Positions 11,597-38,768 of a stretch of DNA of 64,000 nt are shown one piece after another. Below the pieces are notes generated by a model that worked only from the letters and a program-made list of their open reading frames with translations, was not told the origin of the DNA and searched no databases. Position numbers and translations under genes: made by a program. Location: the IMG/VR virus record IMGVR_UViG_3300017913_001136, positions 1-64,000 of that record. One strand, written 5' to 3'. This stretch comes from a virus (lineage: Duplodnaviria > Caudoviricetes). Position 1 is the first letter of the stretch. Every line of letters starts with the position of its first letter.

Positions 11597-11620
11597 ATCT
11601 GATCCTGTTCGGTTTTACTC

Positions 11621-11628
11621 TATTTATA
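11621..11628 (-). promoter_or_regulatory. Late promoter TATAAATA
   Basis: Exact match upstream of the 848-aa ORF. Confidence 0.75.
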
Positions 11629-17094: not shown

Positions 17095-17095
17095 A

Positions 17096-20000: not shown

Positions 20001-22843
20001 TTATTTCCTGGAACCATTTGAATAAATGGTGCTTCGATATCGTTGACATAATATCCTTGACTAGATCCAGTCCCTTCGTAACGATGCGCTGTTGTTTTAG
20101 AAGCAACACTTACTGTTAGAACAGTTGCGTCTGAATCATGTACGAACATGATCCTTTCTACATTTTTAATACCCTCTGTTGATATAGTCTCTGTGAAGAT
20201 ACTGATAATTTCAGAAGAATCTAAAACGTCTGGAGTGTTGGTAAAGTTACCATAATTCAGATAGTAAGTTCCTTCTTGACCATCTAACTGATCTGCATTG
20301 ATACCAAGTGCGTCAATCGTTGCTTTATCAACCGTTGGGATAGTTGGTGTAGCAGTGAAGTTATTATAATCAAGATAGTAAGTGCTATCGTTTCCACCTA
20401 ATGTAGCAGCATCGATACCTGTTACAGTCTTGATGTAGTCACTATCTACAATCTGAAGAACCTGACCTGAGTCTACTGTAGATACACGAGCATTGATATA
20501 TGCGCTGTCAATAATATTGATAACAGCATCGGAATCAGTTGCACTTACTCTTGCATTGATATATGCAGAATCAATCAGTGCGGTGATATCTGAGTCTACA
20601 CGTGCTTTCGTATAGTAAAGATTATCACCTTCAGTCAGATTGGTTGTAGTGTGATTAGAAAGATCTGAAACAGTTCCTGTTACGTCACCAGTCAAGTCAC
20701 CTGTGACATCACCATAGAATCGATTCGCTTGAACATTCGCATACTCAAAAGAAGAATGACCTACATCGATATTTCCTTCTGGTTCAGGATTATATTTGTT
20801 GAAGAACTTAAACCGTTCATCTGATGCATCACGGAAGAAACCAGCATGAGTATATGGATTCGCTGAGTCGTTATAGTTACCAGAGAAACCAAAGTCTACA
20901 TTAACTGGTGCCGCAATACCTTTCCAAACATCACCCGAATCATGACCGTTCTCTGCCTCAAACTGAATACTGATACCATAACGAAGCGCAACTGATGGGG
21001 TTGATGAATCTAATGTAAATTCTGTTGGACCGCCAGCGGATTCAAAACCCTGTAGTGTAGCAAAGTTAGAATCAAATGACCATTGAATTTTATCGTGGTT
21101 CGAATGATCATCTGAGATTCTTACATAGTATGCTACATTTGAATCGCCTTTATAATGCCCTTTGAAGGTTGCATCGTTTAGACCAGATCCTGTGTGTACA
21201 GCAGAAGCGATAGTATCACCGCCACCAACATATACAAACTGATCAGCAACTTCCAAACTTGCGACAGATGTTTTTGTTTCTGTTCCAAGAATGTTCAGAT
21301 TACCAGCGATTGTTACATTACCGTCAAACCTTGATGTGCCAATAGTTCTTAGAGTCTCAAAGATTTCTGTTCTAGGATTAACCTGAATACAACCGCCAAC
21401 GTTGCCGCCACTAGCAGAATCAGATACAAGCACAACACCAATCTCAAACGCAAAGTTTGGATGCGTTGGGTTAAATGAAACCAATTCACCAGCAGAGTCA
21501 GGAGAAACGTGTACAACAGCACCTACTGAGAATGAGGCAGTATTCAATCCACCAAACAGACCACGCATGGTAACGAAACCATATTCTTCTGTTGGGATAT
21601 TGTGTGCTGTTAGACCAATTGTTTCATATACAGTTTCAAAGGTATCTGATTTCGCCAAAGCGATAGTTGGGAAATCGTTTGCTGCACCAGTAATATAAAC
21701 TGCTTTACCCTTATCGATCTGAGAACCAGTGTTGTTGTAAACCCTAACAATCTCGTCTTGAGCAATCTTAACATTGATACGATCGTTGGAATATGTGAGT
21801 GCATCTGGACCTTGGAAGTAGAACAGATTCCCTTCTTCAAAGGTCGGTAGATTATCAGGAACATTGATATCCGTAAATGTAGTTTCTCTGAAGTTTATTT
21901 TATCTACTTCACCGATAGAATCTACTGTGATACTTCTATGTGTAACTTCTGTATTATCACCACCAACATATTGATTGATAAACGCAGAATCGATAGTTCC
22001 TCTAATATAATCAGAGTCTGCTCTTGCTCTTACATAAGCAGAGTCAATGACTGGTGTATTAGTAAAATTGTTATAATTTAAATAATACGTTCCTTCAAAA
22101 CCATCGAGCGTATCAGCATTAGTATTCAATGCGTCTACAAAAGTCTTATCAACATCAATCGCAATAATGCTACTTATTGCTGCTGAGTCAAACGAACCAG
22201 AAACCGTTAATTGTCTTGACTGAATATACGCAGAGTCAATGATATTCGTAACATCTGCTGACTCGGCGATGCTACCTGCTGTCGTTTGATTGATGATTGT
22301 AATGTAGGATGAATCTACGATACTTCTTACGAAGTCTGAGTCTCTGAACCGATCACGTGCTTGAATATAGGCAGAGTCTACAATATTCGTTACGAATGAA
22401 GAGTCTATAGAATTAGAAAGATAAGTAGCATTGACGGTATTGTTAATGATGTTAACAACATCACCTGAGTCGATATCTGCTCTTGCGTTAATATACGCAG
22501 AGTCAATAATGCTGATAATAAATGCGGAATCTAAGACATCGCCAAAGTTGATAAGGTTATTGACGATGGTCGTGTCTAAACGATTATTGATATAATCTGA
22601 GTCGATTAATACAGTGACTTCACTTGAATCAAGTTGTGATTGGGCAACGGTTTCAATCTGGTCAACAAGGTTCTGTACAAGTGCAGAATCAATAAATGCT
22701 CTGATATTATTAGAGTCATCTTTATAGTAAAGTTTACCATCGGCAAAGTTAATAGCGAGTTCGCCATATTGCAGATCGCTACTGTCAGGAATCCTTCCTG
22801 CTACCGAAGATCGTTTGAGTAATACTTTTGGTGTCGTTGCCAT
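17096..22843 (-). CDS. Long tail-fibre-like protein (about 1915 aa), mosaic of repeats
   Basis: Probable start MATTPKVLLKRSS (GELAINFADGKLY motif) just after the upstream stop; IDSAY helical repeats, TTDDLTEG-NLY repeats, four TADSGQT-F...LNG repeats, cupredoxin-like domain; about 65 DS. Confidence 0.75.
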   Translation of the reverse strand: MATTPKVLLKRSSVAGRIPDSSDLQYGELAINFADGKLYYKDDSNNIRAFIDSALVQNLVDQIETVAQSQLDSSEVTVLIDSDYINNRLDTTIVNNLINFGDVLDSAFIISIIDSAYINARADIDSGDVVNIINNTVNATYLSNSIDSSFVTNIVDSAYIQARDRFRDSDFVRSIVDSSYITIINQTTAGSIAESADVTNIIDSAYIQSRQLTVSGSFDSAAISSIIAIDVDKTFVDALNTNADTLDGFEGTYYLNYNNFTNTPVIDSAYVRARADSDYIRGTIDSAFINQYVGGDNTEVTHRSITVDSIGEVDKINFRETTFTDINVPDNLPTFEEGNLFYFQGPDALTYSNDRINVKIAQDEIVRVYNNTGSQIDKGKAVYITGAANDFPTIALAKSDTFETVYETIGLTAHNIPTEEYGFVTMRGLFGGLNTASFSVGAVVHVSPDSAGELVSFNPTHPNFAFEIGVVLVSDSASGGNVGGCIQVNPRTEIFETLRTIGTSRFDGNVTIAGNLNILGTETKTSVASLEVADQFVYVGGGDTIASAVHTGSGLNDATFKGHYKGDSNVAYYVRISDDHSNHDKIQWSFDSNFATLQGFESAGGPTEFTLDSSTPSVALRYGISIQFEAENGHDSGDVWKGIAAPVNVDFGFSGNYNDSANPYTHAGFFRDASDERFKFFNKYNPEPEGNIDVGHSSFEYANVQANRFYGDVTGDLTGDVTGTVSDLSNHTTTNLTEGDNLYYTKARVDSDITALIDSAYINARVSATDSDAVINIIDSAYINARVSTVDSGQVLQIVDSDYIKTVTGIDAATLGGNDSTYYLDYNNFTATPTIPTVDKATIDALGINADQLDGQEGTYYLNYGNFTNTPDVLDSSEIISIFTETISTEGIKNVERIMFVHDSDATVLTVSVASKTTAHRYEGTGSSQGYYVNDIEAPFIQMVPGNKYRFDQAAATNASHPIKFYYEADKTTEYTTNVTTVGTAGSAGAYVEIEITDATPPVLHYQCQNHGYMGNAIFVQTRNLTGFDTDDLSEGSTNLYFTNTRADARADARIAAATTDDLTEGSTNLYYTKTRADSDIASTVQDEGSILNLRITNLITSTVDSAFVQARQIDSQRDSAFITDIIDSAYIQARQSDGGGGGSSITVQDEGVSLSTAATTFNFVGAGVSASGTGAVKTITIPGSSGGGGGGGANGPLVTKFTFTADSAITVFSDSDDNGNVLDYPFTNDNFNVYLNGILLVDSDDYTANDSSTLTLISATDSNDVVQIITFAEAGAATATGVDSAATITLIQNTVDSAFVSSRQTIFERGTLEVNKFIYEADSGQTEFTGADKFGTILTIDPEQIEVYLNGVLMEDTTDFSADSNSVTLTEAADSGYSLTVIETKGRVASSKNTLALSVYEFTADSGQTEFSGDDNSGVALNLTTGISEVFLNGIVLSEAQDYALTNTSVTLNLAADSGDLLTVHNTVSNNVSSVNYREYKFTNQSGRFINGQGMTFGDNSVQVFKNGSLLSQSEYSTVGGQTIYLNSSAILSDTFVVAVYGNGQSKVRIYNFTADSGQTVFTGNDDHNNDLIYAITNTNIVFLNGIALRDSDDYVRTNHTTLTLTQAANTGDELQIITYGHLEYDSSIAIPLERTQFEFTADSGQTAFTGTDDNALTFSYDPGRIDVYKNGLLLNAADFTATNGTSISLTTAADSGDTLSVVRFLGSTPLDGLDSSMVQRIVDSAYVSSVVDSGYILNIVDSNLLVTIVDSNYIASRVTATGVTVQNDGSTLATTGVTLNFTGSGVTASGTGATKTITIDGGGSTDSSAVSALIDSARFNWAEVDSTAETLVIGAKKIVNTKNQTTILTLPTGTLGDEVRIIDGYGNAATNNITITSSQKIIASDSDLILDIDRVAIGLVFYNDSQGWILIEN

Positions 22844-22845
22844 TT

Positions 22846-24507
22846 CTAGTAAGTCCCGCAATCAATAGTTGCTATTTCTACATTCCCTGCTGTGACTAAA
22901 AAGTCTACAGAGTCGAACTTAGCACCACCAATATTAGTGTCTGATGCTAGTTCTAATGATATGCTATATTCGTTCAATCCGTCATTATACAACACATCTA
23001 TACCTTGCCCATCATTTAACAATGATGCTACTCGATCGTCTACACGTTCGTTTGTAAAGTATAAATTCGTTGTTCCTTCGCTAAGACTGTCAGTTGTTTT
23101 CGTTAAGAAACGAACATCAAAGTCTGAGTCTGCACGATAGGTTCTATAATATAAGTTGCTATCACCTTCCGGAAGTTGGTCGGTGTTTGCTAATCCTAAG
23201 TCGCTATCAAAATTTGCTTTTGTATAAATTTGTTCAACATCAACGCTGATATCACCAGTCGTTGAGTTATAGGTAATGTCGCCCGAACCACTGAACAACG
23301 CACGAATATCATTTTCAAACAATGCATAATTAAACTGACCTGTTGAGTTGACATAAGTAAATGTGCCGAGTTCACCACCGTTCGTAGCAGATAATGCTGA
23401 TCTTGCCCTAAGATCTGTATAGTAAAGATTATTGCCTTCTGTGAGATCGTCAGTAGTTTTCTGACCAAAGTCTGAATCAAATCCTTCATATTCACCGCTG
23501 AACCCACCTTCTACTGTAAGTCCACCCTGTACAGTCAGATCGCTCTCGACTATCAGGTTTGGAGCATAAACGTCAATGTCTAAGTTCCAAGAGTGAGTTG
23601 GCGCATCGTAGTAAATATTTGCGTTCGCACCAGTGACGTGAATACCTGCCGAGTCTGCTTCGGTTCTATTAGTCGCACCAGAAGCGAGTGTGATATTTTT
23701 ATCTTCTACTGTAAGTGTCTGCGAGTTTACTGTAGTTGTTGTACCATCAACCTGTAGATCACCAGCGATGATAACTTTACCAGAGTTTCCGACAGGATTC
23801 GGGTCAAGAGTAAGATCGCCAGAGGTTGTGCTAATAGTATTGCCATCGACCTTGACATTATCTACTGTAAGACTTGCCAGTCCAAGAACATCAGAGTCAA
23901 GTGCGACTTCTACCTTTACTCCATCGCTGGGTTGGTCAATACGTTTAGTGTTAGTGTTCCATGTACCACGAACTTGAATAGTTCCACCAGTGGTAACATT
24001 ACCTGCACCATCTTGGTTGACGTCAGCACTCACAAAGGCGACATCATAGTTATCAAAATAATTAAGTGTCAGCGCATCTTGCGGATCAGTAGGATCAACA
24101 ACATCTTTGATCTGCGAAGTGCTTGCTGAGATGACCCCAGTAGTTGGGTCGAGAATTAGATTACCTGTTTCTGTAGATATTGTGTTTCCATCGATATCAA
24201 TGTTATCAACGTGGAACTCAGAAACTTTATTATTTTCATCAGTAATAACCGCATGCTGAGGAACTGTTTGCCCCTGCGGTTGATCCATCATGTCAGTGTA
24301 ATATTTACCGCCAACGATATGGACTTCGTTCGCTATGCCATTTGTATTCCCACCTGCACCAATAAATAATCTATCACCACCAGCAGAGTCGCCTGTGGTG
24401 TAGGAGTAACCCTGTTCACCAGTTGCAAGAATCTTTTTGCTAGTGTTTAACGAACTGCTAATCAGCGGAGTACGATTGGAGGTTTTAATGAGAATTCTTG
24501 ATGGCAT
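22846..24507 (-). CDS. Tail-fibre-like virion protein
   Basis: GEQGYSY...GDRLFIG, IDGNTIST repeats, DPQDALTLNY, VEDKNITL, TTDDLTEGNNLYYT. Confidence 0.75.
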   Translation of the reverse strand: MPSRILIKTSNRTPLISSSLNTSKKILATGEQGYSYTTGDSAGGDRLFIGAGGNTNGIANEVHIVGGKYYTDMMDQPQGQTVPQHAVITDENNKVSEFHVDNIDIDGNTISTETGNLILDPTTGVISASTSQIKDVVDPTDPQDALTLNYFDNYDVAFVSADVNQDGAGNVTTGGTIQVRGTWNTNTKRIDQPSDGVKVEVALDSDVLGLASLTVDNVKVDGNTISTTSGDLTLDPNPVGNSGKVIIAGDLQVDGTTTTVNSQTLTVEDKNITLASGATNRTEADSAGIHVTGANANIYYDAPTHSWNLDIDVYAPNLIVESDLTVQGGLTVEGGFSGEYEGFDSDFGQKTTDDLTEGNNLYYTDLRARSALSATNGGELGTFTYVNSTGQFNYALFENDIRALFSGSGDITYNSTTGDISVDVEQIYTKANFDSDLGLANTDQLPEGDSNLYYRTYRADSDFDVRFLTKTTDSLSEGTTNLYFTNERVDDRVASLLNDGQGIDVLYNDGLNEYSISLELASDTNIGGAKFDSVDFLVTAGNVEIATIDCGTY

Positions 24508-24788: not shown

Positions 24789-25139
24789 TTATGTCACCGA
24801 TGGACTCACTCGTATCTTTCCTTCAAGGATTCTCTCAATGATAGTTCTATTGTTACTATCTTCATAAGAGATCTCAACATCATAAACATAGTTGCCAACA
24901 CGAAGTGCGTCAGTTTGTTGATTTGTCAAGGAAAGAGTTATGATACCATCGGATGCAGGAGTATTGATAGCAACAGCGAAATCTGTTGTATCATCTGAAT
25001 CGGAGTTGTAGTTCCGTTTCATTTTAGCAGCAGCGTCGTAATTTGTGAGGTCTTTTTTGTTGCCTGAAGGGTCAACAAGTTCTAGTTGTACTGCAATGTC
25101 CGACCCTTTGTCGAACGTGAACTTTTCGTATTCTGCCAT
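24789..25139 (-). CDS. Conserved Ig-like (BppU-N-like) virion protein
   Basis: DLTNY-A-KMKRNY...GIITLSLTNQQT-AL..GNYVYDVEI...RILEGKIRVSPSVT. Confidence 0.6.
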   Translation of the reverse strand: MAEYEKFTFDKGSDIAVQLELVDPSGNKKDLTNYDAAAKMKRNYNSDSDDTTDFAVAINTPASDGIITLSLTNQQTDALRVGNYVYDVEISYEDSNNRTIIERILEGKIRVSPSVT

Positions 25140-25182: not shown

Positions 25183-25190
25183 TATTTATA
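25183..25190 (-). promoter_or_regulatory. Late promoter TATAAATA restarting transcription after the GT cassette
   Basis: Exact match overlapping the methyltransferase stop codon. Confidence 0.8.
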
Positions 25191-25755
25191 AAAAAACAAT
25201 ACTGAATCTAGTATAATTGTCGAACTTATCTTCAAAGGTATTGATGATTTTATTCTTAGCAGTCGTAACGCTGGCGACGAACTGATTTATATTTTCTTTA
25301 CAGTTTATGTGATCTTCTATCCCAAAGTAATCATTTGATTGTAGGATTACTACAGTCCCTTCTTTTTTCTTTTTAATCCAATTTTTAATTTCATCATCGG
25401 TCATATGTTCACAAGAACAACATACCAACACATTGTGATGGCGAGGGTTGTGTTTGTTTAGATCTATCGTTTTATATTTCACATTTGAAAAAAGTCTTAG
25501 ATCAGCGCATTTAGGGTCTATATCAAACGACTCAACATTTTTAAAATCGTCAAGCATGTGCGCAAGTAATCCATGCCAACCTGCAGCGATGGATATTTTA
25601 GGATTCTCGTACATTAATAAATAAGTTTGTAAACGATCATATAAGAGTTCTTTATTTCTTATCTGATTTTCGTTCACAGCATTCGTGATATCTTTCACGA
25701 GGGATATATCGTCAGTCTTATGAATCGTCTTTAGAATTTTATTATAATCTATCAT
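25186..25755 (-). CDS. Class I SAM-dependent methyltransferase
   Basis: Motif I-like IAAGWHG, acidic SFDIDP, CCSCEH, LQSNDY. Confidence 0.7.
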   Translation of the reverse strand: MIDYNKILKTIHKTDDISLVKDITNAVNENQIRNKELLYDRLQTYLLMYENPKISIAAGWHGLLAHMLDDFKNVESFDIDPKCADLRLFSNVKYKTIDLNKHNPRHHNVLVCCSCEHMTDDEIKNWIKKKKEGTVVILQSNDYFGIEDHINCKENINQFVASVTTAKNKIINTFEDKFDNYTRFSIVFL

Positions 25756-26665
25756 GAAAAGAATAATTTACAGTTTGTATATTGATATCCCACTTGAGGA
25801 ACTTGATGAGCAACCTCCTCATTTCAATTCTACGATATCCAAAACACTTCACACCAAAGAAGAGTTTCAAAAATATTATGACTGGTTGGTTCAATCCCAA
25901 ACAGCATACGCAAAAAAGAATCACACTGATTATATATTGTTCAAAGATGATGATCAATTCAAAGAATATAAGTCATGGTTTCTAAAAGAGTATCCTGAGA
26001 TAACTTCATACAACATAGTCAATTTCTACAAACTTCATTTGATGTATAAGTTGTTAGAAGAATATGACGAAGTTCTTTATATAGACTTTGATGTAATTCC
26101 CGTCAAAGAACTTAATTTCTTCGAACACTGGAATTTGAATAATGGTATATGTGTCTTATCTGGGATACAACCTTCACAAAGAGGGATATCGTTTAGTATG
26201 CCAGACATATTAAAAGAAAAAGATAAGACCCACAGTAACAGATCACCGATAGCAAAATACTGGAACGCACATGCTATGTTAACAGAAAGCGATAACTCTG
26301 TAGAAGGATGTGATGTCTTTAATACAGGAATCGTTGGTATCAACAGGAAGTTCGCAGACAAGTTGAGTTATTTTGAAAACTTTAACGAGACGATATCTTT
26401 CATGACCGAATTGAAAAAAAGAAACGATCTGATGTATCCTCCATATATTCAAAAACTATTTGGATACGATAATGAAACCATATGGGCATGGAAGGTATTA
26501 TCTCAGAATATATCGCATCAGAGTTTAGGTGAGGACTGGCACTATTTTATGGACAAGTGGGCATTTATTCCACAAAGTGCTATATTCGTTCATTGTATTA
26601 ATAAAAATTTTGAGTTTGTAAAGGGTTGGTATGAAGAGAATGATATTCTCGATCTTTTCAGATAA
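25754..26665 (+). CDS. GT-A fold glycosyltransferase 1
   Basis: FYKLHL...EVLYIDFDVIP (DxD), FNTGIVG, DNET, WH...FVHCINK. Confidence 0.75.
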   Translation: MKRIIYSLYIDIPLEELDEQPPHFNSTISKTLHTKEEFQKYYDWLVQSQTAYAKKNHTDYILFKDDDQFKEYKSWFLKEYPEITSYNIVNFYKLHLMYKLLEEYDEVLYIDFDVIPVKELNFFEHWNLNNGICVLSGIQPSQRGISFSMPDILKEKDKTHSNRSPIAKYWNAHAMLTESDNSVEGCDVFNTGIVGINRKFADKLSYFENFNETISFMTELKKRNDLMYPPYIQKLFGYDNETIWAWKVLSQNISHQSLGEDWHYFMDKWAFIPQSAIFVHCINKNFEFVKGWYEENDILDLFR

Positions 26666-27407
26666 TATCGAAAAAGATCATCAGTCAAGTAACGATTATA
26701 AGAAACAACAGTTCACGAAGTATGCTCACCTCTTAGAAGAGAAACAAAAAGAGTATGCAAGAATATGTGGTGCTGAATATAATCTATTCAAAGTTGATAC
26801 GGAAAGATATGATCAAATACAATTTGATAAGATTCATATGTTTGACGAACTGGTATACAATTATGACGAAGTTCTATATCTTGACTTCGATGTAGTTCCG
26901 CAGAAAGAGGATAATTTTTTTGAACATCACGACTTAGATGCTGTTTGTGCATATTCCTTTGAAAGAAAACCAAGCAGTAGAGTTATAGAAAGAAAGATCC
27001 GAGAGGATGATTTTGATGGGATGAATGTTTTCTCAAAAGGTTGTTGTAAACAATCTATGCTTTTGCTTCATGATATATCGAGTGACTACTCTATAATCAA
27101 TACAGGAGTTCTCGGTATGAATAGAAGGTCGGTTGCAAACTTAAACTTCACTGATGATATTGTAGAGGCATGGACAACTTATTTTGAGTGTAGAAATGAT
27201 AATATATATCCAGAAGAAATAAATAAATATTGGCGTGGCAATAACGAAGTATTCATCACATATATGATAGAGAAGAATAAGGTTAAATTCAACAATATCG
27301 GTATGCCATGGAACTTTATGCTGGATGAATATGAACCAAATCCATCAGATGCTGCATATCTTTTACATTATGTCCATAAGGATTTTAAATTTGTGGAATC
27401 AAAATAA
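26631..27407 (+). CDS. GT-A fold glycosyltransferase 2 (paralog of GT1)
   Basis: MKRMIFS start like GT1; FDKIH...EVLYLDFDVVP, INTGVLG, NNEV, WN...LLHYVHK. Confidence 0.75.
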   Translation: MKRMIFSIFSDNIEKDHQSSNDYKKQQFTKYAHLLEEKQKEYARICGAEYNLFKVDTERYDQIQFDKIHMFDELVYNYDEVLYLDFDVVPQKEDNFFEHHDLDAVCAYSFERKPSSRVIERKIREDDFDGMNVFSKGCCKQSMLLLHDISSDYSIINTGVLGMNRRSVANLNFTDDIVEAWTTYFECRNDNIYPEEINKYWRGNNEVFITYMIEKNKVKFNNIGMPWNFMLDEYEPNPSDAAYLLHYVHKDFKFVESK

Positions 27408-28038
27408 AATAGTAATTGATGCATCTAACACTTGTACATTAGAATGTCCTAGATGTGCGAGACAGTTGTATCCAGAGTATGGATTACCCAAAGCAGGGTT
27501 TGAACAATCTGGCAATCTTTCGGTTGAAAATTTTAAAAAACTTCTTAACAAATTTAACAACTTCACTTTTTGTGGGCAAGTAAGTGACCCAATTATGAAT
27601 CCAAATTTAATTGAGATGCTTCAATTAATATACTCGGAAGGAAAAGATGTATCAGTAATGACTGCTGCTACAGTGAAGAATAGAAAAGAAGATTGGTATC
27701 GTAAAGCATTTGAAGCACACCCAAAGGCAAGATGGGTGTTTGGAATTGATGGTCTACCAGAAGAAAGTAATTTGTACAGGATAAATCAAGACGGAGAGTT
27801 CTTGTACGAGATGATGAAACTCTGTGCGAAGATTTGTAAGGTTAGTGAATGGCAATATATTGTTTTTTCATATAACGAGGATAATATAGAAACAGCAATG
27901 GCCATGGCGAAAGAAAATAAAATCCGTTTCTCCTTAAACTTTAGTTCAAGATGGAGTGGAGAAAAAGATCCATACAAACCAACGATTGATAAGTATCAAT
28001 TTAAACGACCAGATGAATGGAAAACACTTTGGAAGTAG
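27325..28038 (+). CDS. Radical SAM enzyme (core domain; true start probably 27370-27390)
   Basis: CTLECPRC CxxxCxxC; GQVSDP, FGIDG, LYRINQD, WQYIVFSYNE. Confidence 0.85.
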   Translation: MNMNQIHQMLHIFYIMSIRILNLWNQNKIVIDASNTCTLECPRCARQLYPEYGLPKAGFEQSGNLSVENFKKLLNKFNNFTFCGQVSDPIMNPNLIEMLQLIYSEGKDVSVMTAATVKNRKEDWYRKAFEAHPKARWVFGIDGLPEESNLYRINQDGEFLYEMMKLCAKICKVSEWQYIVFSYNEDNIETAMAMAKENKIRFSLNFSSRWSGEKDPYKPTIDKYQFKRPDEWKTLWK

Positions 28039-28436
28039 ATGATATCAAAAAGAATAAAGTTCTAAGTCCAAAGTGCATCAACGATGGAGAAAGGTTTCCA
28101 TCATATAGTTGCTCTGGATGGTTAACTCCCTGTTGTTGGGTTGATGGGTATTGGGCAGAAAAAGAGTTTCCTCAGTTTTTCGATGAAGAATTAAAACTTG
28201 ATAATGTGGATGACGTTGATGAAATATTATTAAGTGAGGTGTGGATAGATTTCTTCAAGACATTAACTGAAACTCCAGAAAAAGCACCAAATACATGTTG
28301 GCGATATTGTGGAGTATTTAACTCAACAGTAGAAAAGGCAGAAGAGATAAAGAAAGATTTAAATATAGCACCGTCAAGCGTGTGGGATCAAAAATGTGCA
28401 CACGGTGTAAGAATAAAAGTTCTGAGTGATAAATGA
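28017..28436 (+). CDS. Stand-alone SPASM/Twitch-like Fe-S domain protein
   Basis: PKC...GWLTPCCW...EILLSEVW...PNTCWRYCG cysteine pattern, directly after the radical SAM gene. Confidence 0.6.
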   Translation: MENTLEVDDIKKNKVLSPKCINDGERFPSYSCSGWLTPCCWVDGYWAEKEFPQFFDEELKLDNVDDVDEILLSEVWIDFFKTLTETPEKAPNTCWRYCGVFNSTVEKAEEIKKDLNIAPSSVWDQKCAHGVRIKVLSDK

Positions 28437-28990
28437 GAATAATATGTGTTCGCACTGGTGATAAGTATGACCAGTGGTATGAAGATAATCTAAAATATAT
28501 GATTGACAAGTATTCTGGTCTTGAATATGATTCGTATGAAGTGATTCGTGATGATGTATACGAACTATCTGTAGCAAATAAATTGTTAATGTTTGATCGT
28601 TACAGAGAAGGGCAAAACCTCTTCTTTGATCTCGACGTTTGCATTAAAGGCGATTGTAATAGATTTTTGTACGAAAGTCTGCACGTCTTACGAGCATGGT
28701 GGAGACCAGATTACCATACCCCATTGAACTCTTCGATTATATCTTGGCAAGGTGATTATTCTCACATATACAAAGAGTGGGAAAGTGATCCCGAATATTA
28801 TATGTTCAAATATTACAAAGGAATTGATCAGTTCTTATATGAACAGTTCAATCCTACTGCGATATATTGGGGGTTCAATTCTTTACAGACTATAGAAGAA
28901 GAGGATCCCAGATATGCTGTGACCCTCTTTAATCAAAGATATGAATACATGAAGCGAAACGGATGGTGGAGTAAATACTTTATTTCTTAA
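28433..28990 (+). CDS. GT-A fold glycosyltransferase 3 (GT8-like, short)
   Basis: ICVRTGDKY, NKLLMF, LFFDLDV (DxD), LNSSIISW, YKGIDQFL. Confidence 0.7.
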   Translation: MRIICVRTGDKYDQWYEDNLKYMIDKYSGLEYDSYEVIRDDVYELSVANKLLMFDRYREGQNLFFDLDVCIKGDCNRFLYESLHVLRAWWRPDYHTPLNSSIISWQGDYSHIYKEWESDPEYYMFKYYKGIDQFLYEQFNPTAIYWGFNSLQTIEEEDPRYAVTLFNQRYEYMKRNGWWSKYFIS

Positions 28991-29477
28991 GTTTCATTTC
29001 ACAAGCAACTTTTACTGCTTCTGCCAATGTTTTCGCTTTCCGTAATTCTGCTTTCATTTCTTTGTTGCTATGATTTTTAATAAAAGTCAGTTCGAACAAT
29101 TTTAATTTAAAAGCAAAAAGTCTTTCTTGTTCTTCTTTTCCTTTTTTGTTTTTACCGAAAAGAAGTTCTAACAATGCATCATAGTGGAGTGAACTGTTAG
29201 CGATATCATCAGCATCGTATATCAACCCATCTTCACGAGCGATAGTTGCTACTGCTTCGCGATAGATAGCATCTTGTTCTCTGATGTGTATTGCAGTTTT
29301 CTCATGCAACTCATCTAGAGTTGTATGTTTTAAGATTTCCTGCCAAACCTCATCGTCATCTTCTGCTAGGCAATGTTCTACCCTTGTTGTCCCATCCGGA
29401 GAAATCCAAGTAGAAACAACAGAAGTTCTTTCGTTATTATCGAAATATGCCCATTTAAATCTGTGACCATCCATCAC
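28980..29477 (-). CDS. Conserved hypothetical protein
   Basis: 165-aa ORF coupled to the upstream virion gene. Confidence 0.6.
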   Translation of the reverse strand: MMDGHRFKWAYFDNNERTSVVSTWISPDGTTRVEHCLAEDDDEVWQEILKHTTLDELHEKTAIHIREQDAIYREAVATIAREDGLIYDADDIANSSLHYDALLELLFGKNKKGKEEQERLFAFKLKLFELTFIKNHSNKEMKAELRKAKTLAEAVKVACEMKLKK

Positions 29478-30496
29478 GTTATCTCCAAGTTAAGTGCCCA
29501 AGTTGATTCATTAACAATCGAACCATTGGGAAATTCTTGCGCACGATAATCATCGCCTGTTGCTTTGTATTTAGTGTATTCCCCAGTAACACCAGTCATC
29601 TGTTGGTTCTTTATCAAAGTTCCTTGCCGTCTACCGCTTCCATTTATATTATATCTGATTGTATAACCTTGTATGCCATATATTGCTGCTTTTACCATTG
29701 GTCCGAATAAAGCATCAAACTCCGCATATGTCATATGCCTTAATCCTGTTGGTGTGTTTTTACGGTTTGAAGCAGTATCAATCATTAATGGAGTTCTGTA
29801 TCCAAACCCCTGATTGATGATTTGCGAATTTACTCTATGCAATCGATATGTAGTTGTATCGTGGTAATCTTGTGTTGTACCAGCACCACCTATATTCGTT
29901 GATCCTGTTGATCTATATGTAGCAAGATTTGCTACAGTATCTGCAAAAACAACACCAAGATTTGCGCAGTTTGCCACATTTACAGATGTGGATATAAAAT
30001 AAGAACCTCCTGCGCTTGATACAGTACTGCTTGTCGCCTGCATACTTCGTACAACAGGAAATATAAAAGTATCTAAACATTCAGCGAAAGACATTTCACG
30101 AATAGTCTGATCATCTTCCATATAAATTGGTTTCGTATTTAATGCCTGATAATCACTATTATCAAAAGATCCTGGATTCGTAATCGTCTGAGATATCTTA
30201 TCATATGTAGTGCCTGTGATTAGTTGTGGTTCACCAGTAGCACCCTCTCCAGGCATACTTGTCACGTCTGTCCAAGGACCTGAAGTATCTCTTGCCGCAG
30301 TTCCTGAACGATACCTTGTATCGGTCATCTGTGGAGTAATGTTACCAAGATTGGGTACGACGCTCAATGTTACAGGAACAGTTCCTTGTCCATATAGATA
30401 CGTGATACGACCCAACATTGCTTCATGCTGAGCAGCAGTCGTATGCCTTATCCTAGTGGATCCATCTTCTATAAACGCTCTTCTTGGTAACGGCAT
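29474..30496 (-). CDS. Putative virion structural protein
   Basis: 340-aa T/S/G-rich ORF in the late operon; MTDTRY...TGEP...YDKISQ, YRAQEFPNG. Confidence 0.6.
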   Translation of the reverse strand: MPLPRRAFIEDGSTRIRHTTAAQHEAMLGRITYLYGQGTVPVTLSVVPNLGNITPQMTDTRYRSGTAARDTSGPWTDVTSMPGEGATGEPQLITGTTYDKISQTITNPGSFDNSDYQALNTKPIYMEDDQTIREMSFAECLDTFIFPVVRSMQATSSTVSSAGGSYFISTSVNVANCANLGVVFADTVANLATYRSTGSTNIGGAGTTQDYHDTTTYRLHRVNSQIINQGFGYRTPLMIDTASNRKNTPTGLRHMTYAEFDALFGPMVKAAIYGIQGYTIRYNINGSGRRQGTLIKNQQMTGVTGEYTKYKATGDDYRAQEFPNGSIVNESTWALNLEIT

Positions 30497-31182
30497 TATG
30501 GGGTTCCAGGAGTACTAGATGTAGATAAGAAATAACCTGAAAGAACTACAGTTCCTGTTTCGTTTTTCACTGTAAGAAGTTTCGAGTTTCTAAACTCTAC
30601 ATTATCAAATGTTAATGTTTGACCGATAATCAAATGATCTATGAATGCGCTATCAATAGTTGCTGAATCAGCATCAATATTTTTAGCAACGACATTCGTG
30701 ATAGTAGCACTATCAGTCGTTAAAAATTTTGTGTGAAGGTGATTTACTATCGCTGAATCAATGATTAGGTTAGCACCGTCATCAACGTGGATACGGTTTA
30801 CATCAATCTTATTGAACTTTCCGCTATCTACATCTAACACACCTGTCACAGTAAGATTAGCGATACTGGCACTATCTATTGTAGCACTATCAGCGACTAA
30901 CATACCTGCACGAATGATTCTAAATGTACCAGAATCAGCAATAATGTTTTTAAGTAAAAGATTTCCTGTGCTTAATAACGTGTTGATACTGTCTACAGTT
31001 TCCCACATAAAATTAATTGCGGAAACAATATTAGAGTCGTGAGTTTTACCTGCATTGGAATCATACACTCCAAAATCAGATTCAAGTTCATCGAGATCTC
31101 CGATGTAATCTGACATCAGGTTCGTTTTAGAAACCCACTGACCTATGGGAGCATTGGTTAATATTTCTTCTTTTCTTGACAT
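30496..31182 (-). CDS. Short beta-helix fibre-like protein A
   Basis: WVSKTNLMSDYIGDL N-terminus; DSATIDSA repeats; 11 DS. Confidence 0.6.
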   Translation of the reverse strand: MSRKEEILTNAPIGQWVSKTNLMSDYIGDLDELESDFGVYDSNAGKTHDSNIVSAINFMWETVDSINTLLSTGNLLLKNIIADSGTFRIIRAGMLVADSATIDSASIANLTVTGVLDVDSGKFNKIDVNRIHVDDGANLIIDSAIVNHLHTKFLTTDSATITNVVAKNIDADSATIDSAFIDHLIIGQTLTFDNVEFRNSKLLTVKNETGTVVLSGYFLSTSSTPGTP

Positions 31183-31185
31183 TTT

Positions 31186-32115
31186 TTACACCACGTCTAA
31201 TTTATACCCACCGAACTGTATAACCCCTGGATCAGAAGGGGAACTTGGTCCACGTGAATCTGTTATTAAGAACTTGCTAACTCCATCATAGGTTGAATCG
31301 TCAAATGTTAAATCCTCTTGAAGATATAGATTATTTATAAGCGCACTGTCAATGGTCGCACTATCACTGGTGATGTTTGTAACCTTCAACAAATGATTAA
31401 ACTTCGCAGAATCGATTGTATTAGAAACATTATGAACAAGAGCAAAGTTAATTTTTACAAACCCATCACTATCTGCAGTCAGAGTTTGTATATACCCACT
31501 ATCATGAATCTGTATATGATCGAACAAAGCACTGTCTAAGTCGTATGATGAACTATCGAAATGAGTGGTAACAAGATTGTTAAATGTTGCACCACTATCT
31601 ACCAAGAAATCAAATTTGAATGACGAGATAAGATAGTTTGTAGAATCTGGTAACAAGATACTGTTGATGAGTCCAGTAGATCCGATAGAATCGCCACGCT
31701 CATAACTATCCCGAACGAAAGCATCCGCAGCATAGAAATGAGTGAATACATTTCCTGTCCCACCTGGACTATCATCTAATCTTAATATGTGGAAGGTTGC
31801 TGAATCAACGAGGAGATTAGCAGTCATCTTCGCTGAACCACCGTTGAACAAACTGGTCAGGAATGTGACCATTGGATTGTAAACGTGATTGACAGCAGTT
31901 ACAAAACTAGAATCTCTGTATCCAGGACGATAGGTATCATATAACCCACTATCAGCAATCTTTTCTAAATAGTAATCGCCATAGTAATTCAGAGGAGTAG
32001 TTCTAATCTCTGTAACAAAATCATCGAGATCGCCCATGTAGTCAGACATTGTATTCTGACTATCGATCCACTGCTGGATAGTATTATCACTGTCGATATG
32101 AATCTTTCTTGCCAT
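31186..32115 (-). CDS. Short beta-helix fibre-like protein B (paralog of A)
   Basis: WIDSQNTMSDYMGDL; 19 DS. Confidence 0.6.
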   Translation of the reverse strand: MARKIHIDSDNTIQQWIDSQNTMSDYMGDLDDFVTEIRTTPLNYYGDYYLEKIADSGLYDTYRPGYRDSSFVTAVNHVYNPMVTFLTSLFNGGSAKMTANLLVDSATFHILRLDDSPGGTGNVFTHFYAADAFVRDSYERGDSIGSTGLINSILLPDSTNYLISSFKFDFLVDSGATFNNLVTTHFDSSSYDLDSALFDHIQIHDSGYIQTLTADSDGFVKINFALVHNVSNTIDSAKFNHLLKVTNITSDSATIDSALINNLYLQEDLTFDDSTYDGVSKFLITDSRGPSSPSDPGVIQFGGYKLDVV

Positions 32116-32318
32116 TACTTCAACCTATCCAGTATTTCCCTCATCATATCTCTTAGTTCACCAACCTGATATTTGATATCTTCGATCTCCTGCTTTTGAC
32201 TCTTTCGTAATTTCTTCGAAAGTTTTGCTTTCTCGATCGAAGTTATATCAACATTCAATATAGCATTATTATTTAAATCACGAACAAGAGTGTTGTGATT
32301 CTCTACCTTCGCTTTCAT
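32115..32318 (-). CDS. Small coiled-coil protein
   Basis: LVRD...AILN...EIEDIKYQVGELRDMMREILDRL. Confidence 0.6.
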   Translation of the reverse strand: MKAKVENHNTLVRDLNNNAILNVDITSIEKAKLSKKLRKSQKQEIEDIKYQVGELRDMMREILDRLK

Positions 32319-35300
32319 TATACCGCCAGTGCAATAACTCTTAGATCTTTGAATGATGGAACAAGAGCACTGCTCCTAGACTTCATTACGATCTTCAAAA
32401 TAAATTTATCAAACGGATCAACAAAACCTACTGTGTCACCAATAAGATAGGTGTAATCCCTGAACACTGCTGGGTTCTCGTCACTCTGGATTTGCTCTTC
32501 CGGAGAAATTTCTACCCACTCAAGATCGTCAAAGTTCTGATCTTCGGTTGCGACTTTATAATACAAGTCAAAGTCAGCGACAGAAGGTTTGTTCGCTGAA
32601 AGAAGAACTTTCACACCAACAGAAGGGGATTCAAGGATAACTGGTTTCACGATATGTTTCGCCAGATGTGAACCACCGTTCGGATCAGTTTCGTCAGCAT
32701 AATCAATAGGAGTGTTTCTATTATTGTTCAACAATACGCCAGGAGAACCTGCTGAATCTTGGAAGTCAATATTATTATGGAACATCCACAACCCAGTTCT
32801 CTGCAGATCAACAACAGGTGAAAGATCACTATCGGTTGTAGTCAAGTTCAATTTGATAGTTGCTGACTTATCACCGCTCATAGAGTTGGTTTCACGCTCG
32901 GAGTTCGCAAGAACCTTTGGAGTGAGGAAGTAGTTATCTTCGTTCGCTATGATTCTTGTATATGTTCCTGCTTTAGTGTACTGTGTTTCGTTACCTGCAT
33001 GAGACTTACCCTCAGTCAGTTTTGCGTCAACAGTAATATCAGTTCTCTTTGGTATCAATGTTTGAAGGCGAGGACTCAAGATCTCGTAATGAATATTCTG
33101 AGTTGCCAGCGCAGATAGACCACCAAAAGTTGATGAGTCAGTTGCCGAATCGTCAGAAGTAATTGTATAATGATCTTCGTCTACAGCGATAATAGTTCTA
33201 TTGTTGCTAATACTTGCACCAGTCATACCATTACCGAATGAACCTGTACTATCTAAACCACTGATTCTTACTGTATCACCAGCAATAAATCCATGATTCG
33301 GTTGATTCACTGTTACAACATTAGAACCTGAATCTACTTCAAATGGGTTCGCAGGAAGCAGGTCAAGAGGAACAGCAGGGTTCTCTAGGATAACTGTTGC
33401 CGAAGTGTTAGGGAACTTCGCTTGAATCAGTTCGAACTTCATGTCTTTGTTCTGAGCAGGATTCCATGTAGAACCATTCTGAGATAAGAACAATGAACCT
33501 AGTGTTGGTTGTTTTGCAATCTTTCTTGCAGTTGAACCTACTTCAAACTGTTCTGTTTCAGCAATGTATACATTATAATCTACTGACTGAGCAAGAAGAA
33601 CAATAGCATAAGTGGTTAAACCACTCAGGAATACTGGTTCATCAAATTCAAACTCAGTTGCTGAAGTAGCATCGTTTGAAGTTGTAACAGAACTTGGTTC
33701 TAAGAACTTCACTGCTCCTGGAACAGGGATACTATCGGGAACGCCAGCAACCATTGGACGAATCTGTAATTGTACAGGAATATTCGCATCTTTCGTTTTA
33801 AAGAAAATTTTGACTTTAGTAATGAATACACCGTTTGGTTTATTCACGAAAAATGATTGCGCCAAAGGATCATTTGGATTTGGTTCTGGTGGATTATCAT
33901 CACCTCCTGGAGGAGAAGGTGGATTAATCCTAGAACGACCAGTTACTACAGAACGAATTGAAATTTGGCGAGTCGCCTTTACTGTACGATCTACAGTTTC
34001 GAGTACACCGTTTGCATCAAAGTAACCTTTAGAAAATGATGTAGCATATTCTGCATCACCACCAGTAACATCCATCAATTCAAATGCACGTGTACCAGTT
34101 CTAAACCTGATCGCATCAGTATTAGGAACAAAGAAGTTACCTTCAATCTTACCTGCTGCATTTGAAGTAAGAATTCTGTCAGCAGCATTTGGTGCGTCTG
34201 GGTGAGTTGTTGCTCGGTTATGGCGATTGCCGACTGCTGTAGTGCTTGAACCATGACGTGTGAATGAAGCAGTTGCATCTACCCAATCTGCTACCGATAC
34301 GCCATCAAAGAATGGATAGTGGCGAGTATTCGGTTTCAGACCTTGTACACGGAACGACATTTTCACTGAACGCATAAACGGAATCAGCGCAACATCTACA
34401 ACCTTTTCGTCAATCACTTCACGAATAGTTTGTTCAGATACAACACGATTAACTCTCGTGACTCTGAAACCACCTTCTGCAGTAGTTCTTGCACCTGTGA
34501 CATTAGTACCAACTGAGATACCACCCCAGTTCCAACCCCAGTTACCAAATAACCGATTGGATTGATTATCAAGACGAGTACCACCGCTCACAACTTTCGT
34601 ATGGCGAACCTTTGTTTCTTTCCAGTGATCTGATGAAGGTGAAAGATCGGTATAACCTTCGTTTGTGATAACGGCAAACGGATTGATGTTTTCAGTTCCG
34701 GATGCAAGATCTTGATTAATGTATGAGGCATGGTTATATGCCATCATTACATTATCACCTTTTAGAATAGTGTTTGTGGATTGAACTGAATCGTAAAGAA
34801 GTCTCAGTTCTTCTTCTGAAAAGATAGGTCTCAAGATTTTATTTTGTGGATCAACAGATGCTCGATATTCGATATTGTTGACATCTGATGACTGATGGTC
34901 AATAAAGTTATCAACCAAGAACCCAGACTTTGTACGATCTAATCCACCAGAGTCTAAGACTGAGAAGTTTTTCAGATCGATTTCTAGTAGACTCAAAGCA
35001 GTGACTTCTTCAAGATTATCAAGACGATCTTCCATACGAGAAAGATCCTTCATTGTAAACCCTTTTGCCTCTACTTTACGCATCTCCATATCACTGTCAT
35101 GAACTGATCCTGGACGCATCTTGATTTGATACAGTTCTAATGCACCTTCTGGTGTTTCAGGGAACTGTGGATTGAAACTTGAGTTTCCTTCAAGATACTG
35201 CAGAGGATTAGTCGCAATCAATTTATCGTAACGAGGAAGATAATAAGTGACGTCACCAGTGACCAATGAAGTATTAGTCGGCAAAGGATTATATCTTGCA

Positions 35301-37418: not shown

Positions 37419-38768
37419 TTAGAACGATATAATTATTTTTACGTCTTCAGTTTGTGTCGCATCTCTTAGCACTGCTGCACGATTATCTATATACAGAATA
37501 TCGCCTGTTTCTACATCGTACTTCGGCGAGATCAATGCTGAATCGATAACACCATCACCAGCACCATTAGTTTCTTGAACAACTTCACCGTCCTGGAAGG
37601 CGATATGCCCTGTACTGTCAGTTTGATGGTAGAAAATTTCATTAGAGTCTATGTGGTCAACGAAAGCAACCGCACCTGAAGTCTGACCCTCAATTTTCTT
37701 ATCTTTTGTAAATGCTGTAACAATACTGCTCAGAGTCATTTTGTCGAGCGCATTACCAGTCAAATCAGTAAAGTATGCGCCATTCTGTTGACGTGGATCT
37801 CTCCACAACGAAACCTGACGGAAGTCCTGACCAACAATTAAATCACTATCATCTGGATCTAACTGTGAGTGGAACATAACAGCAGTAGACCTTAGATCAT
37901 CTCTAGCATCACGACCGATACCAGAATCAGCAGTAACAACCGCACGTGCTGTTGCTCCTGCACCACCACCACCAGTGATGGTAATAACAGGAGTATTGAA
38001 ATATCCTGATCCATGACTTAGAGTAGAACTATCTGGATCCATAGTAATATGTGTCACAATACCAAGTGCTGAATCAATGAATGCTGATGCCGCAGCACCA
38101 CTACCTGACTGACCTGTGATTGATACTGTAGGACGTGATGTATAACCTGAACCACCATCTGTCAACACAATACTAGAAATCATTGCTTGCTTAGTATTGT
38201 TCTGAACTGATTCGTGACGCAACTCAATGCCAGTAGAGTTGGAGTCAGTTACACCCTGCTTTTTAACAGGCATAAAGTTCGATGACATAAATTGGTTTGC
38301 ATCAGATGCTGATATAGTGTACAAGAACTTCCAAACATAACCATCACCAAGACGGAATGAGTTATCATTTGAAGAAGTCGGTTCTACAGTAGAAGTAACA
38401 ATATTCCCGTCATCATCTCTACCTACTTCAAGGCAAACATAAACCTGATTGTTGTCTGTCTTTACATAGTATGGATTGGTCGGATATCCTGCTACCAGAT
38501 CATCGTATGCTGAGTAGATTGTACCGCTAATCCAGTTGTTACGAGGAACAACCTGTGAAACTGCCTGAACCTTTTTGACAGAAATAAGTTGATCACGAAC
38601 TTGACGAATATCGAGAATGGTATCTTCTGGAACAGGAACATGGTCATTTGAGTCCCACTGTTCTGGTCTACCGATACCCACATAATAATTATTGCTATTC
38701 AGGTTGAAACCGTCGAAGAAGTTTCTCGCCAATATCTTTCTGAGTGCTCTTGTAATAATTGCTGGCAT
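37419..38768 (-). CDS. gp8: Baseplate wedge subunit
   Basis: YYVGIGRP, VVPRNNWISGT, NQVYVCL, GDGYVWKFLY, GDILYIDNR, EDVKIIISF. Confidence 0.9.
   Translation of the reverse strand: MPAIITRALRKILARNFFDGFNLNSNNYYVGIGRPEQWDSNDHVPVPEDTILDIRQVRDQLISVKKVQAVSQVVPRNNWISGTIYSAYDDLVAGYPTNPYYVKTDNNQVYVCLEVGRDDDGNIVTSTVEPTSSNDNSFRLGDGYVWKFLYTISASDANQFMSSNFMPVKKQGVTDSNSTGIELRHESVQNNTKQAMISSIVLTDGGSGYTSRPTVSITGQSGSGAAASAFIDSALGIVTHITMDPDSSTLSHGSGYFNTPVITITGGGGAGATARAVVTADSGIGRDARDDLRSTAVMFHSQLDPDDSDLIVGQDFRQVSLWRDPRQQNGAYFTDLTGNALDKMTLSSIVTAFTKDKKIEGQTSGAVAFVDHIDSNEIFYHQTDSTGHIAFQDGEVVQETNGAGDGVIDSALISPKYDVETGDILYIDNRAAVLRDATQTEDVKIIISF

Follow-up and report, generated by a model that had tools for sequence, protein, structure and literature searches.

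A conserved glycosyltransferase–methyltransferase gene unit in the fibre region of a Mosig-type marine phage and its possible role in virion glycosylation

Amongst the structural genes of a T4-like marine phage lies a compact block of genes for glycosyltransferases, a radical S-adenosylmethionine (SAM) enzyme and a methyltransferase, which raises the question of what these enzymes modify and why they reside there. The block occupies positions 25186-28990 of a 64,000-nucleotide stretch of DNA (the window), comprising positions 1-64,000 of an 84,907-bp viral contig, IMG/VR record IMGVR_UViG_3300017913_001136, estimated to be 45% complete. A preliminary description had placed six open reading frames (ORFs) at exactly these positions, and this is borne out: in order, they encode a methyltransferase (MT), two glycosyltransferases (GT1 and GT2), a radical SAM protein, a Cys-rich protein and a third glycosyltransferase (GT3). 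Comparison with related viral loci and contigs (designated L0xx; L001 is positions 54701-71305 of Pelagibacter phage Mosig) reveals the block to be a rearranged member of a published island type. It appears to be the enzyme half of a unit of Mosig-type pelagimyophages with the order fibre-like protein–o340–o165–GT3–MT–GT8, optionally followed by a second glycosyltransferase and by radical SAM enzymes, where GT8 denotes the GT1/GT2 family and o340 and o165 are non-enzymatic partners. Glycosylation and methylation of virion proteins is the function tentatively assigned to this unit, with a confidence that falls somewhat short of even.

To judge from its sequence, the contig belongs to a T4-like marine phage related to Mosig. 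Every substantial ORF between 309 and 53030 is on the minus strand, except for the plus-strand block 25754-28990, and family scans place this block inside a T4-type structural region. The earlier claim that enzyme genes interrupt the minus-strand structural genes is thereby upheld, as this is the sole plus-strand coding between those positions, whilst the claim that all six enzymes are antisense holds for five ORFs and fails for MT, which shares the strand of the structural genes. Amongst 50,697 deposited phages, only Mosig (EXVC030M) matches GT1, GT3, the radical SAM ORF and o340, at 31-42% identity, and it carries a larger enzyme island (~17 kb) in the equivalent position between the tail fibres and VrlC. 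A nucleotide search of the block against the same phages returned zero matches. In pelagimyophages, the non-syntenic region from VrlC to gp14 has been described as a 'host recognition cluster' in which fibre genes are accompanied by GT8 genes and radical SAM cassettes (Zaragoza-Solas et al. 2020, PMC7029224). The window has the corresponding layout, with a VrlC-like protein at 32318-37408 (phrog_358, E 0), a gp14-like adaptor at 8246-9001 (phrog_211), fibre-like proteins between them (9050-24507, family scan) and Mosig, of equal layout, as its nearest deposited relative.

The composition of the unit emerged from its relatives. A scan of viral contigs with GT1 yielded 29 loci, and more were found through exact look-ups of MT- and o340-family proteins; all ORFs were clustered in 24 loci, and a further three contigs (L041-L043) were sampled independently through o340. 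The core o340–o165–GT3–MT–GT8 is fixed across this set, with GT8 and both GT3 and MT present in 24/24 clustered loci and o165 and o340 each in 23/24, and it recurs in these loci and in L041-L043 at a mere 25-45% amino-acid identity. All three contigs reached through o340 carry the module, its core whole or mostly so. GT3–MT–GT8 forms the invariant part of the enzyme set, whilst the radical SAM genes are variable. Natural fusions join its members: GT3 and MT form a single protein in L002 (hhalign 99.9%), and homologues of GT1 and GT2 are fused as single ORFs of 547-586 aa in six loci (L026, L027 and L031-L034).

The commonest layout, present in at least 14 loci, is co-directional and reads VrlC>o67>FIB>o340>o165>GT3>MT>GT8>(second GT3-like)>(0-6 radical SAM ORFs)>o116>~90 aa>FIB>FIB, where FIB is a fibre-position gene. 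The window, Mosig, L002, L003, L005, L041 and L043 carry the enzyme block in inverted orientation, and in the window the gene order is reshuffled as well, MT alone retaining the structural orientation. Since most relatives are co-directional, the antisense layout, which had been presented as a property of the module, is instead a lineage-specific rearrangement. Junctions within the window are tight: the start codons of MT and GT1 overlap on opposite strands in the CATG at 25753-25756, GT3 and o165 share 11 bases at their 3' ends, and zero intergenic room is left for terminators.

The unit can be absent in its entirety. In HTVC008M (L045, 43925-46648), VrlC is followed by gp058, gp059 (fibre-like) and gp060 and then directly by the o116 homologue, and o340, o165, GT3, MT and GT8 are all missing; at this single site the entire unit is thus either present or cleanly absent. 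The ORFs in the equivalent position of C48C1 could be assigned to no family. At the compact end, L042:9143-18514 (of a 146.5-kb contig) has a VrlC-gp13 region of only ~9 kb, with a single 736-aa fibre rich in Asp-Ser (DS) dipeptides, yet keeps o340–o165–GT3–MT–GT8–GT3' and offers a compact natural reference for the core.

The position of the module amongst structural genes, as first described, holds in most loci and breaks down in L031, L033 and L034, where it lies beside curli, nuclease and nucleotide-metabolism genes in place of VrlC and fibres; a cassette equally frequent away from structural genes had been named in advance as refuting evidence, and these loci go part of the way towards it. 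In L033 and L034 the unit comprises a 114-aa fibre-family ORF, two copies of o340, o165, two radical SAM ORFs, GT3, MT and a fused GT8-GT8, and adjoins CsgG/CsgF, a nuclease and DUF1289; QueC-like, thymidylate kinase and thymidylate synthase genes follow in L034, and L031 is similar. Where the unit lies elsewhere (L031, L033, L034 and L027), o340 and o165 travel with the enzymes, as does the fibre-family ORF in L033/L034. That non-enzymatic partners move with the enzymes argues that they work jointly.

The three glycosyltransferases are all of GT-A type. GT1 (25754-26665, plus strand, 303 aa) and GT2 (26631-27407, plus strand, 258 aa) are paralogues, as proposed (30% identity, E 4e-33). The Pfam GT8 model PF01501 scores GT1 at 1.1e-4 (22.3 bits) and GT2 at 6.5e-4 (19.8 bits), both below the gathering score of 24.3, but it matches 14 of 21 members of their family at E <= 0.01 (best 8.5e-7); together these results identify GT1 and GT2 as distant, GT8-like relatives. 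The family alignment contains invariant Y109-x-D111-x-D113, N190-T191-G192 and H280...K284, which we take to be the catalytic signature of GT8 enzymes such as LgtC and glycogenin, namely the DxD metal site, the NxG motif and the C-terminal H...K. In a protein atlas the neighbours of GT1 are viral GT8-like clusters (score 0.98-0.99), whilst a profile of the GT1/GT2 family against PDB sequences returned nothing at E <= 1. Bacterial GT8 enzymes, whether of the LgtC/WaaJ type acting on the lipopolysaccharide (LPS) core or of the GlyE type that elongates glycans on serine-rich-repeat adhesins, share the DxD, NxG and H..K motifs and the retaining GT-A fold; they differ in that the window proteins fall below the Pfam gathering score and have no PDB sequence within reach of their profile.

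GT3 (28433-28990, plus strand, 185 aa) had been called a glycosyltransferase from its FFDLDV motif; the motif is present, with D66-x-D68 invariant in the family, and the fold agrees. An AlphaFold 2 (AF2) model built from 15 homologues (pLDDT 72.7, pTM 0.72) has PBCV-1 A64R as its best Foldseek match (E 6e-6, TMq 0.65), and VIA-align gives Z scores of 14 for glycogenin, 13 for GlyE, 12.5 for A64R and 12 for LgtC; over 165-175 residues, Z lies at 12-14 for glycogenin, GlyE, A64R, LARGE1, UGGT and LgtC. Its best BFVD matches are viral GT8 proteins. On this modelling, GT3 is predicted to be a retaining GT-A enzyme resembling glycogenin and A64R. No family could be assigned at the sequence level by Pfam, NCBIfam, PHROG or PDB profile search, and its 495 clusters have neither a Pfam model nor named cellular homologues. 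Profile–profile comparison of GT1/GT2 with GT3 gave 2% probability, so that sequence homology is not supported even though all three are GT-A-like.

The gene at 25186-25755 (minus strand, 189 aa) had been read as a methyltransferase, and its predicted structure agrees. The AF2 model (pLDDT 89) adopts the class I SAM-dependent methyltransferase fold, from which methyl transfer is predicted; its ten best Foldseek matches are the protein N-terminal methyltransferases NTMT1/NRMT/NTM1 (E 5e-8, TM ~0.63), and more than 500 matches at E <= 1e-3 are all SAM-dependent enzymes. A PDB profile search finds 3dtn at 9e-4, and CntL and nicotianamine synthase, which catalyse other SAM-dependent transfers, also appear amongst its profile and Foldseek matches. 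Invariant or nearly invariant in the family are G58-W-x-G62 and D78-x-D80, together with S-x-E-H, Q-x-N and H-x-N. Scans of Pfam, NCBIfam and PHROG returned only noise for MT, and the family (706 clusters) lacks both a Pfam model and named cellular homologues.

The two remaining ORFs of the block had been counted as a radical SAM enzyme and a separate SPASM enzyme. The first (27325-28038, plus strand; its true start is probably the ATG at 27370) is indeed a radical SAM core domain, with C37-x3-C41-x2-C44 (CxxxCxxC, residues 37-44) conserved in homologues and matches to phrog_21308 'radical SAM' (1.4e-12) and TIGR04317 (1.2e-5); Pfam Radical_SAM (PF04055) matches orthologues only, at 5e-4 to 7e-4 and below its cut-off, and leaves the window ORF unmatched. 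The second (28017-28436, plus strand) is its Cys-rich C-terminal subunit and aligns with the final third of proteins that L006 and L028 encode as single chains of 332-333 aa. As both ORFs align end to end with these proteins, they are two pieces of one enzyme rather than two enzymes, and core and Cys-rich domain are fused in five loci. A frameshifted or broken gene was considered and rejected, since Mosig, L002, L005 and L031 also have the enzyme divided between two ORFs.

The SPASM label itself does not stand. A SPASM domain (PF13186) follows a radical SAM core on its C-terminal side and is defined by the seven-Cys motif CX9-15GX4C ... CX2CX5CX3C ... C. The Cys-rich ORF has five invariant cysteines (C20, C39, C40, C94 and C98) and lies C-terminal to the core in the fused homologues, but of the motif it contains only the first half, C20-x13-G34-x4-C39, the CX2CX5CX3C part being replaced by C39-C40 and C94-x3-C98. 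It has no match, to SPASM or to another family, in Pfam, NCBIfam, PHROG or PDB profile searches, and hhalign against a genuine radical SAM/SPASM neighbour gave 25% probability over 16 columns. By motif only, it is probably an auxiliary Fe-S domain of twitch/SPASM-like character. A PDB profile search with the fused protein found nothing useful. A sugar as substrate of this enzyme is pure conjecture. At L031:7295-8395, a 366-aa radical SAM/SPASM protein carries at its N-terminus the G-x-L-x-P-C-C of the Cys-rich ORF (hhalign, 16 columns, 25%).

Alongside the enzymes stand the two partner proteins. The o165 gene (28980-29477, minus strand) adjoins o340 in 23/24 loci and in L041-L043, and its product combines a small N-terminal domain, a coiled coil of variable length and a conserved basic C-terminal helix. 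Homologues range from 121 to 404 aa, the variation falling in the central helical part. Those of 361-404 aa in L028:5952-7037 and L007:6097-7311 have a long central coiled-coil insertion with both ends conserved, an expanded architecture that may, by analogy, be likened to fibritin-like proteins. The o340 gene (29474-30496, minus strand) encodes a protein rich in T, S, G and A that is found with the enzyme core in 23/24 loci; it accompanies that core outside the VrlC context too and is sometimes duplicated. The family is hyperdiverse, comprising at least 1093 clusters that are all viral or hypothetical. The protein atlas offers neither a fold nor a family for o340, and its atlas model has a pLDDT of 0.39. 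It is a candidate acceptor or structural protein.

The timing of expression may be read from promoter motifs. The window contains 11 exact copies of the T4 late-promoter consensus TATAAATA, where 4.1 would be expected; 10 of the 11 are on the structural (minus) strand, and most lie 18-70 nt before structural gene starts (e.g. at 9037, 11621, 25183, 41140, 44487 and 53065); these sites are consistent with T4-type late promoters. One of them (25183-25190, minus strand) lies 43 nt upstream of o116, marking the downstream boundary of the island, and in 8 other loci the o116 homologue likewise has this motif 23-33 nt ahead of it. In co-oriented loci TATAAATA occurs within o67, ~130 nt before FIB, and none lies between it and GT8; without a further motif before GT8, FIB–o340–o165–GT3–MT–GT8 looks like one late unit. 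TATAAATA also lies 35 nt before the FIB ORF of L033, and in Mosig it occurs on both strands where two enzyme blocks diverge, heading the enzyme block. A near-consensus site with one mismatch, TATCAATA (25780-25787, minus strand), precedes the MT start by 24 nt, within the oppositely directed GT1 gene, and gives weak evidence of a late motif for MT. A scan of the block for sigma-70-like promoters and terminators gave 34 against a shuffled expectation of 27, not above it.

Taken together, these features suggest a mechanism in which the proteins would be soluble, cytoplasmic and made late in infection. The three retaining GT-A transferases would build a short glycan from nucleotide sugars supplied by the host or by a second glycan cluster of the phage, and MT would then cap it. 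The radical SAM enzyme with its auxiliary Fe-S domain would contribute a variable, accessory tailoring step, and the acceptor would be a virion-surface protein of the unit itself, with o340 or the fibre-like proteins beside it as the likeliest candidates. Apart from MT, the enzyme genes of this phage have been inverted and reshuffled relative to the common co-directional layout. The solubility of the enzymes is consistent with their hydropathy, since the maximum 19-residue Kyte–Doolittle value is <= 1.03 in all six cassette proteins, indicating zero transmembrane segments.

The closest precedent for the pairing of glycosyltransferase and methyltransferase is A64R, which joins a retaining GT-A domain to a C-terminal O-methyltransferase-like domain in the synthesis of the PBCV-1 capsid glycan (PMC4691112). 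Like GT3, A64R is a small retaining GT-A enzyme with a DxD motif, encoded by a virus and soluble, and the GT3 and MT functions likewise form a single protein in L002. The differences are that identity is ~13%, the profiles are unconnected by sequence and MT has a gene of its own and belongs to another family, one that lacks a name; moreover, the A64R target Vp54 is experimentally supported, whereas the targets proposed here are candidates. Amongst tailed phages, mycobacteriophages provide a second parallel, since O-glycosylation of their virion proteins by phage-encoded glycosyltransferases has, according to the citing papers, been proposed or demonstrated (Freeman et al. 2023; see PMC12582341 and PMC11256854); these phages are of a different lineage and infect a different host.

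A virion role is somewhat better favoured by the synteny with fibre genes, the late-promoter motif, the A64R-like fusion of glycosyltransferase and methyltransferase, the lack of membrane components, and joint gain and loss with o340 and o165. The best structural matches of GT3 and MT are, in addition, protein-directed enzymes (glycogenin, GlyE, A64R and NTMT1). Of the original interpretation, the enzyme classes were right and a virion-directed role is still favoured, by inference, whilst the notion of a complete pathway was not sustained: zero nucleotide-sugar genes lie in the block, and nothing identifies an initiating protein O-glycosyltransferase. It is possible, if rather less than evenly so, that Mosig-type SAR11 myophages carry a dedicated late system for virion glycosylation and methylation whose acceptor is encoded in the same mobile unit and for which o165 serves as a coiled-coil assembly partner.

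Several observations weigh against this assignment. Neither partner protein is recognisable, o165 lacking a family match in Pfam, PHROG and NCBIfam scans and an assigned fold, and o340 lacking a match in PDB, Pfam or PHROG; a place in the virion is putative for both. The plus-strand block of the window has no exact late motif, only the one-mismatch AATAAATA 130 nt upstream, and in T4-type phages opposite-strand genes are often early. Other class I methyltransferases, of every substrate class, follow close behind the best Foldseek matches of MT, and LgtC, which acts on lipooligosaccharide (LOS), and WbbM, which acts on O-antigen, have Z scores of ~12, within 2 units of glycogenin, so the fold neighbours cannot assign an acceptor. 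Synteny within a hypervariable island can reflect a permissive insertion site instead of function. DS-rich neighbours occur in just 6 of ~23 module-bearing loci (the window, L003, L005, L010, L012 and L042), and the published view of these genes is one of host O-chain modification (PMC7029224).

The DS dipeptides deserve separate treatment, as the preliminary description had made them the link between the block and its acceptors, calling the neighbouring genes the DS-richest of the virion and naming a cassette equally frequent in phages lacking such enrichment as evidence to the contrary. The enrichment itself is real when compared with shuffles: 4623-5612 has 19 where 3.3 would be expected (z 9.8) and the 1915-aa fibre has 66 where the expectation is 17 (z 14.6), with 11 against 2.2 in o228 (30496-31182, z 6.5) and 19 against 4.2 in o309 (31186-32115, z 7.8), with 21 DS dipeptides in 38781-41108. 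Overall, DS is over-represented (z 4 to 14.6) in proteins of fibre or outer-baseplate type encoded at 4623-5612, 6422-7645, 11624-14566, 17096-22843, 30496-32115 and 38781-41108, and the reverse dipeptide SD is not enriched in the same proteins. Fibre-like ORFs of L003, L005, L010, L012 and L042 show DS enrichment as well. The DS-rich ORFs are, as claimed, near the block, but one and two genes further out; the immediate neighbours o165, o340 and o116 have 0, 0 and 2, and the cassette proteins, o340 and o165 have 0-1 each. The link itself was lost in Mosig, which bears the module yet encodes no DS-enriched protein between 0 and 110 kb, so that the contrary evidence named beforehand was largely obtained. 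The module-less HTVC008M and C48C1 are not DS-enriched either, giving a small 2x2 table of 6 loci with both module and enrichment, at least 10 with the module and no enrichment, 2 with neither and 0 with enrichment alone. As Mosig and most module-bearing loci lack it, the module is not sufficient for DS enrichment.

The earlier remark that the block is AT-rich was accurate: at 33.7% GC it lies ~4 standard deviations below the contig mean of 39.1% (standard deviation 1.3) and is the lowest-GC 3.8-kb stretch of the 84.9-kb contig. Foreign origin was rejected as the cause, because GC at third codon positions (0.27-0.35) equals that of the flanking genes. The deficit resides in codon positions 1 and 2 and reflects proteins rich in K, N, I, Y and F (34-39% of residues in the cassette proteins, 27% in the Cys-rich radical SAM piece) rather than foreign codon usage.

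The strongest rival explanation is that the GT8-like enzymes glycosylate the LPS or LOS core, or another surface glycan, of the SAR11 host and that MT caps the product, altering receptors and so blocking the adsorption of competing phages, or of the phage's own progeny, to infected cells and debris. Bacterial GT8 enzymes are best known as LPS-core transferases, which accords with the LgtC and WbbM matches, and a second 'LPS-type' cluster lies on the contig, whilst the window enzymes are on the strand opposite to the late genes. The pelagimyophage survey proposed O-chain modification for the GT8 genes of the host recognition cluster (PMC7029224), and a cyanomyovirus paper reads similar genes likewise (PMC12801897). 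Most relatives, however, carry the genes in a late structural unit, which would be late to remodel the surface of a slow-growing host, and the enzymes are gained and lost together with the non-enzymatic o340 and o165. No flippase, polymerase or ligase is encoded in the block and membrane components are absent, and the GT3, MT and o340 families (495, 706 and 1093 clusters) are without named cellular homologues. Systems of the Gtr type require a bactoprenol-linked enzyme of family GT2, a flippase and an integral-membrane glycosyltransferase. O-antigen modification by GtrA/GtrB/Gtr* resembles the unit here as phage-borne glycosylation and is linked to superinfection exclusion, but differs in that the cassette proteins have no transmembrane segment. 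Host envelope remodelling is less probable than not, and somewhat less so than the virion role, but is a serious rival.

The same survey bears on what is new here. The published cluster and the window agree in the VrlC-gp14 position, in GT8 as the dominant glycosyltransferase family, in radical SAM genes as variable add-ons and in phage group. In that work, glycosyltransferases are treated as scattered, LPS-type auxiliary genes, and a fixed core, fusions, a late-promoter context and copies outside the host recognition cluster are not described; its functional proposal, the host O-chain, differs from the virion glycosylation favoured here (PMC7029224). What is added is a defined core unit present in ~27 loci, its late-promoter context, the GT3+MT and GT8+GT8 fusions and the absence of the whole unit in HTVC008M.

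A second rival, which is improbable, holds that the unit serves the maturation of a protein or peptide, or a natural-product pathway, through radical SAM, hydroxylase and methyltransferase chemistry like that of ribosomally synthesised and post-translationally modified peptides acting on o340 or a small peptide, or through a glycosylated small molecule, glycosylation being one of many steps. Peptides are common substrates of radical SAM enzymes that bear a C-terminal Fe-S domain, and larger islands add radical SAM/SPASM enzymes, hydroxylases, TauD, nitroreductases, aminotransferases and carbamoyl- and acetyltransferases. Nevertheless, DegT-type aminotransferases, carbamoyltransferases, epimerases and acetyltransferases are equally typical of unusual-sugar synthesis, the radical SAM genes vary around the invariant GT3–MT–GT8 core and no precursor-peptide-like ORF was identified. 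The MT family does occur near a radical SAM gene in an unrelated phage: in the Ralstonia jumbo phage RsoM2USA (L040, 215949-218748), a homologue (HMM E 3e-40) lies two genes downstream of a 473-aa radical SAM protein, which is the only such feature of the neighbourhood, as zero GT3, GT8, o340 or o165 relatives are nearby.

Phage glycosyltransferases classically glucosylate DNA, but those of the T4 type have the GT-B fold, not the GT8-like GT-A one. Decoration of phage DNA bases by the glycosyltransferases and MT against restriction, as one cyanophage paper suggests for its own glycosyltransferases (PMC12801897), is highly improbable given a late-operon context amongst fibre genes, the rarity of restriction–modification in SAR11 (PMC7029224) and island scans that show no hydroxymethylase, kinase or base-modifying gene, in agreement with the earlier observation that no DNA-modification genes are adjacent.

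Pelagimyophages and cyanomyophages infect the most abundant bacteria of the ocean, and the glycosyltransferase and radical SAM genes that abound in their hypervariable fibre regions are as a matter of routine assigned to host LPS or cell-wall synthesis with no experiment behind the label. Were virion glycosylation to be confirmed, it would be the receptor-binding surface of the phage, not that of the host, that is diversified by the hypervariable 'LPS genes' of abundant T4-like phages of the sea; phage-made glycans would share in determining host range, and the annotation 'auxiliary metabolic gene' would have to be reconsidered in many marine cases. The question is testable, since Mosig is a cultured representative that grows on Pelagibacter ubique HTCC1062.

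Other features of the contig and of the larger islands complete the picture. The second glycan cluster, on the minus strand from 63422-64000 of the window to ~72000 of the contig (L039), contains a GT8-like gene, two GT25 genes, a sulfotransferase, an NAD-dependent epimerase/dehydratase and an FkbM methyltransferase, and could supply or modify sugars for either virion or host glycosylation. The larger islands of Mosig, L031, L033 and L043 encode Asp/Asn hydroxylases, TauD, nitroreductases, a fatty-acid-desaturase-like protein and a DegT-type aminotransferase, besides several radical SAM/SPASM enzymes, a carbamoyltransferase, an acetyltransferase, a peroxiredoxin and a flavin mononucleotide (FMN) reductase; these added genes constitute a large tailoring repertoire. 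Flanking the island, o116 (24789-25139, minus strand) is a conserved fibre-associated protein found in 91 deposited marine myophages (phrog_1084 8e-23, phrog_3304 6e-15) and named 'L-shaped tail fiber protein assembly' in the family library. On the other side, between o67/VrlC and o340, o228 and o309 (30496-32115, minus strand) occupy the FIB position of related loci, and Pfam, NCBIfam and PHROG scans of both returned noise only. Beyond VrlC, in a minus-strand region, family scans identify a gp8-like baseplate wedge at 37419-38768.

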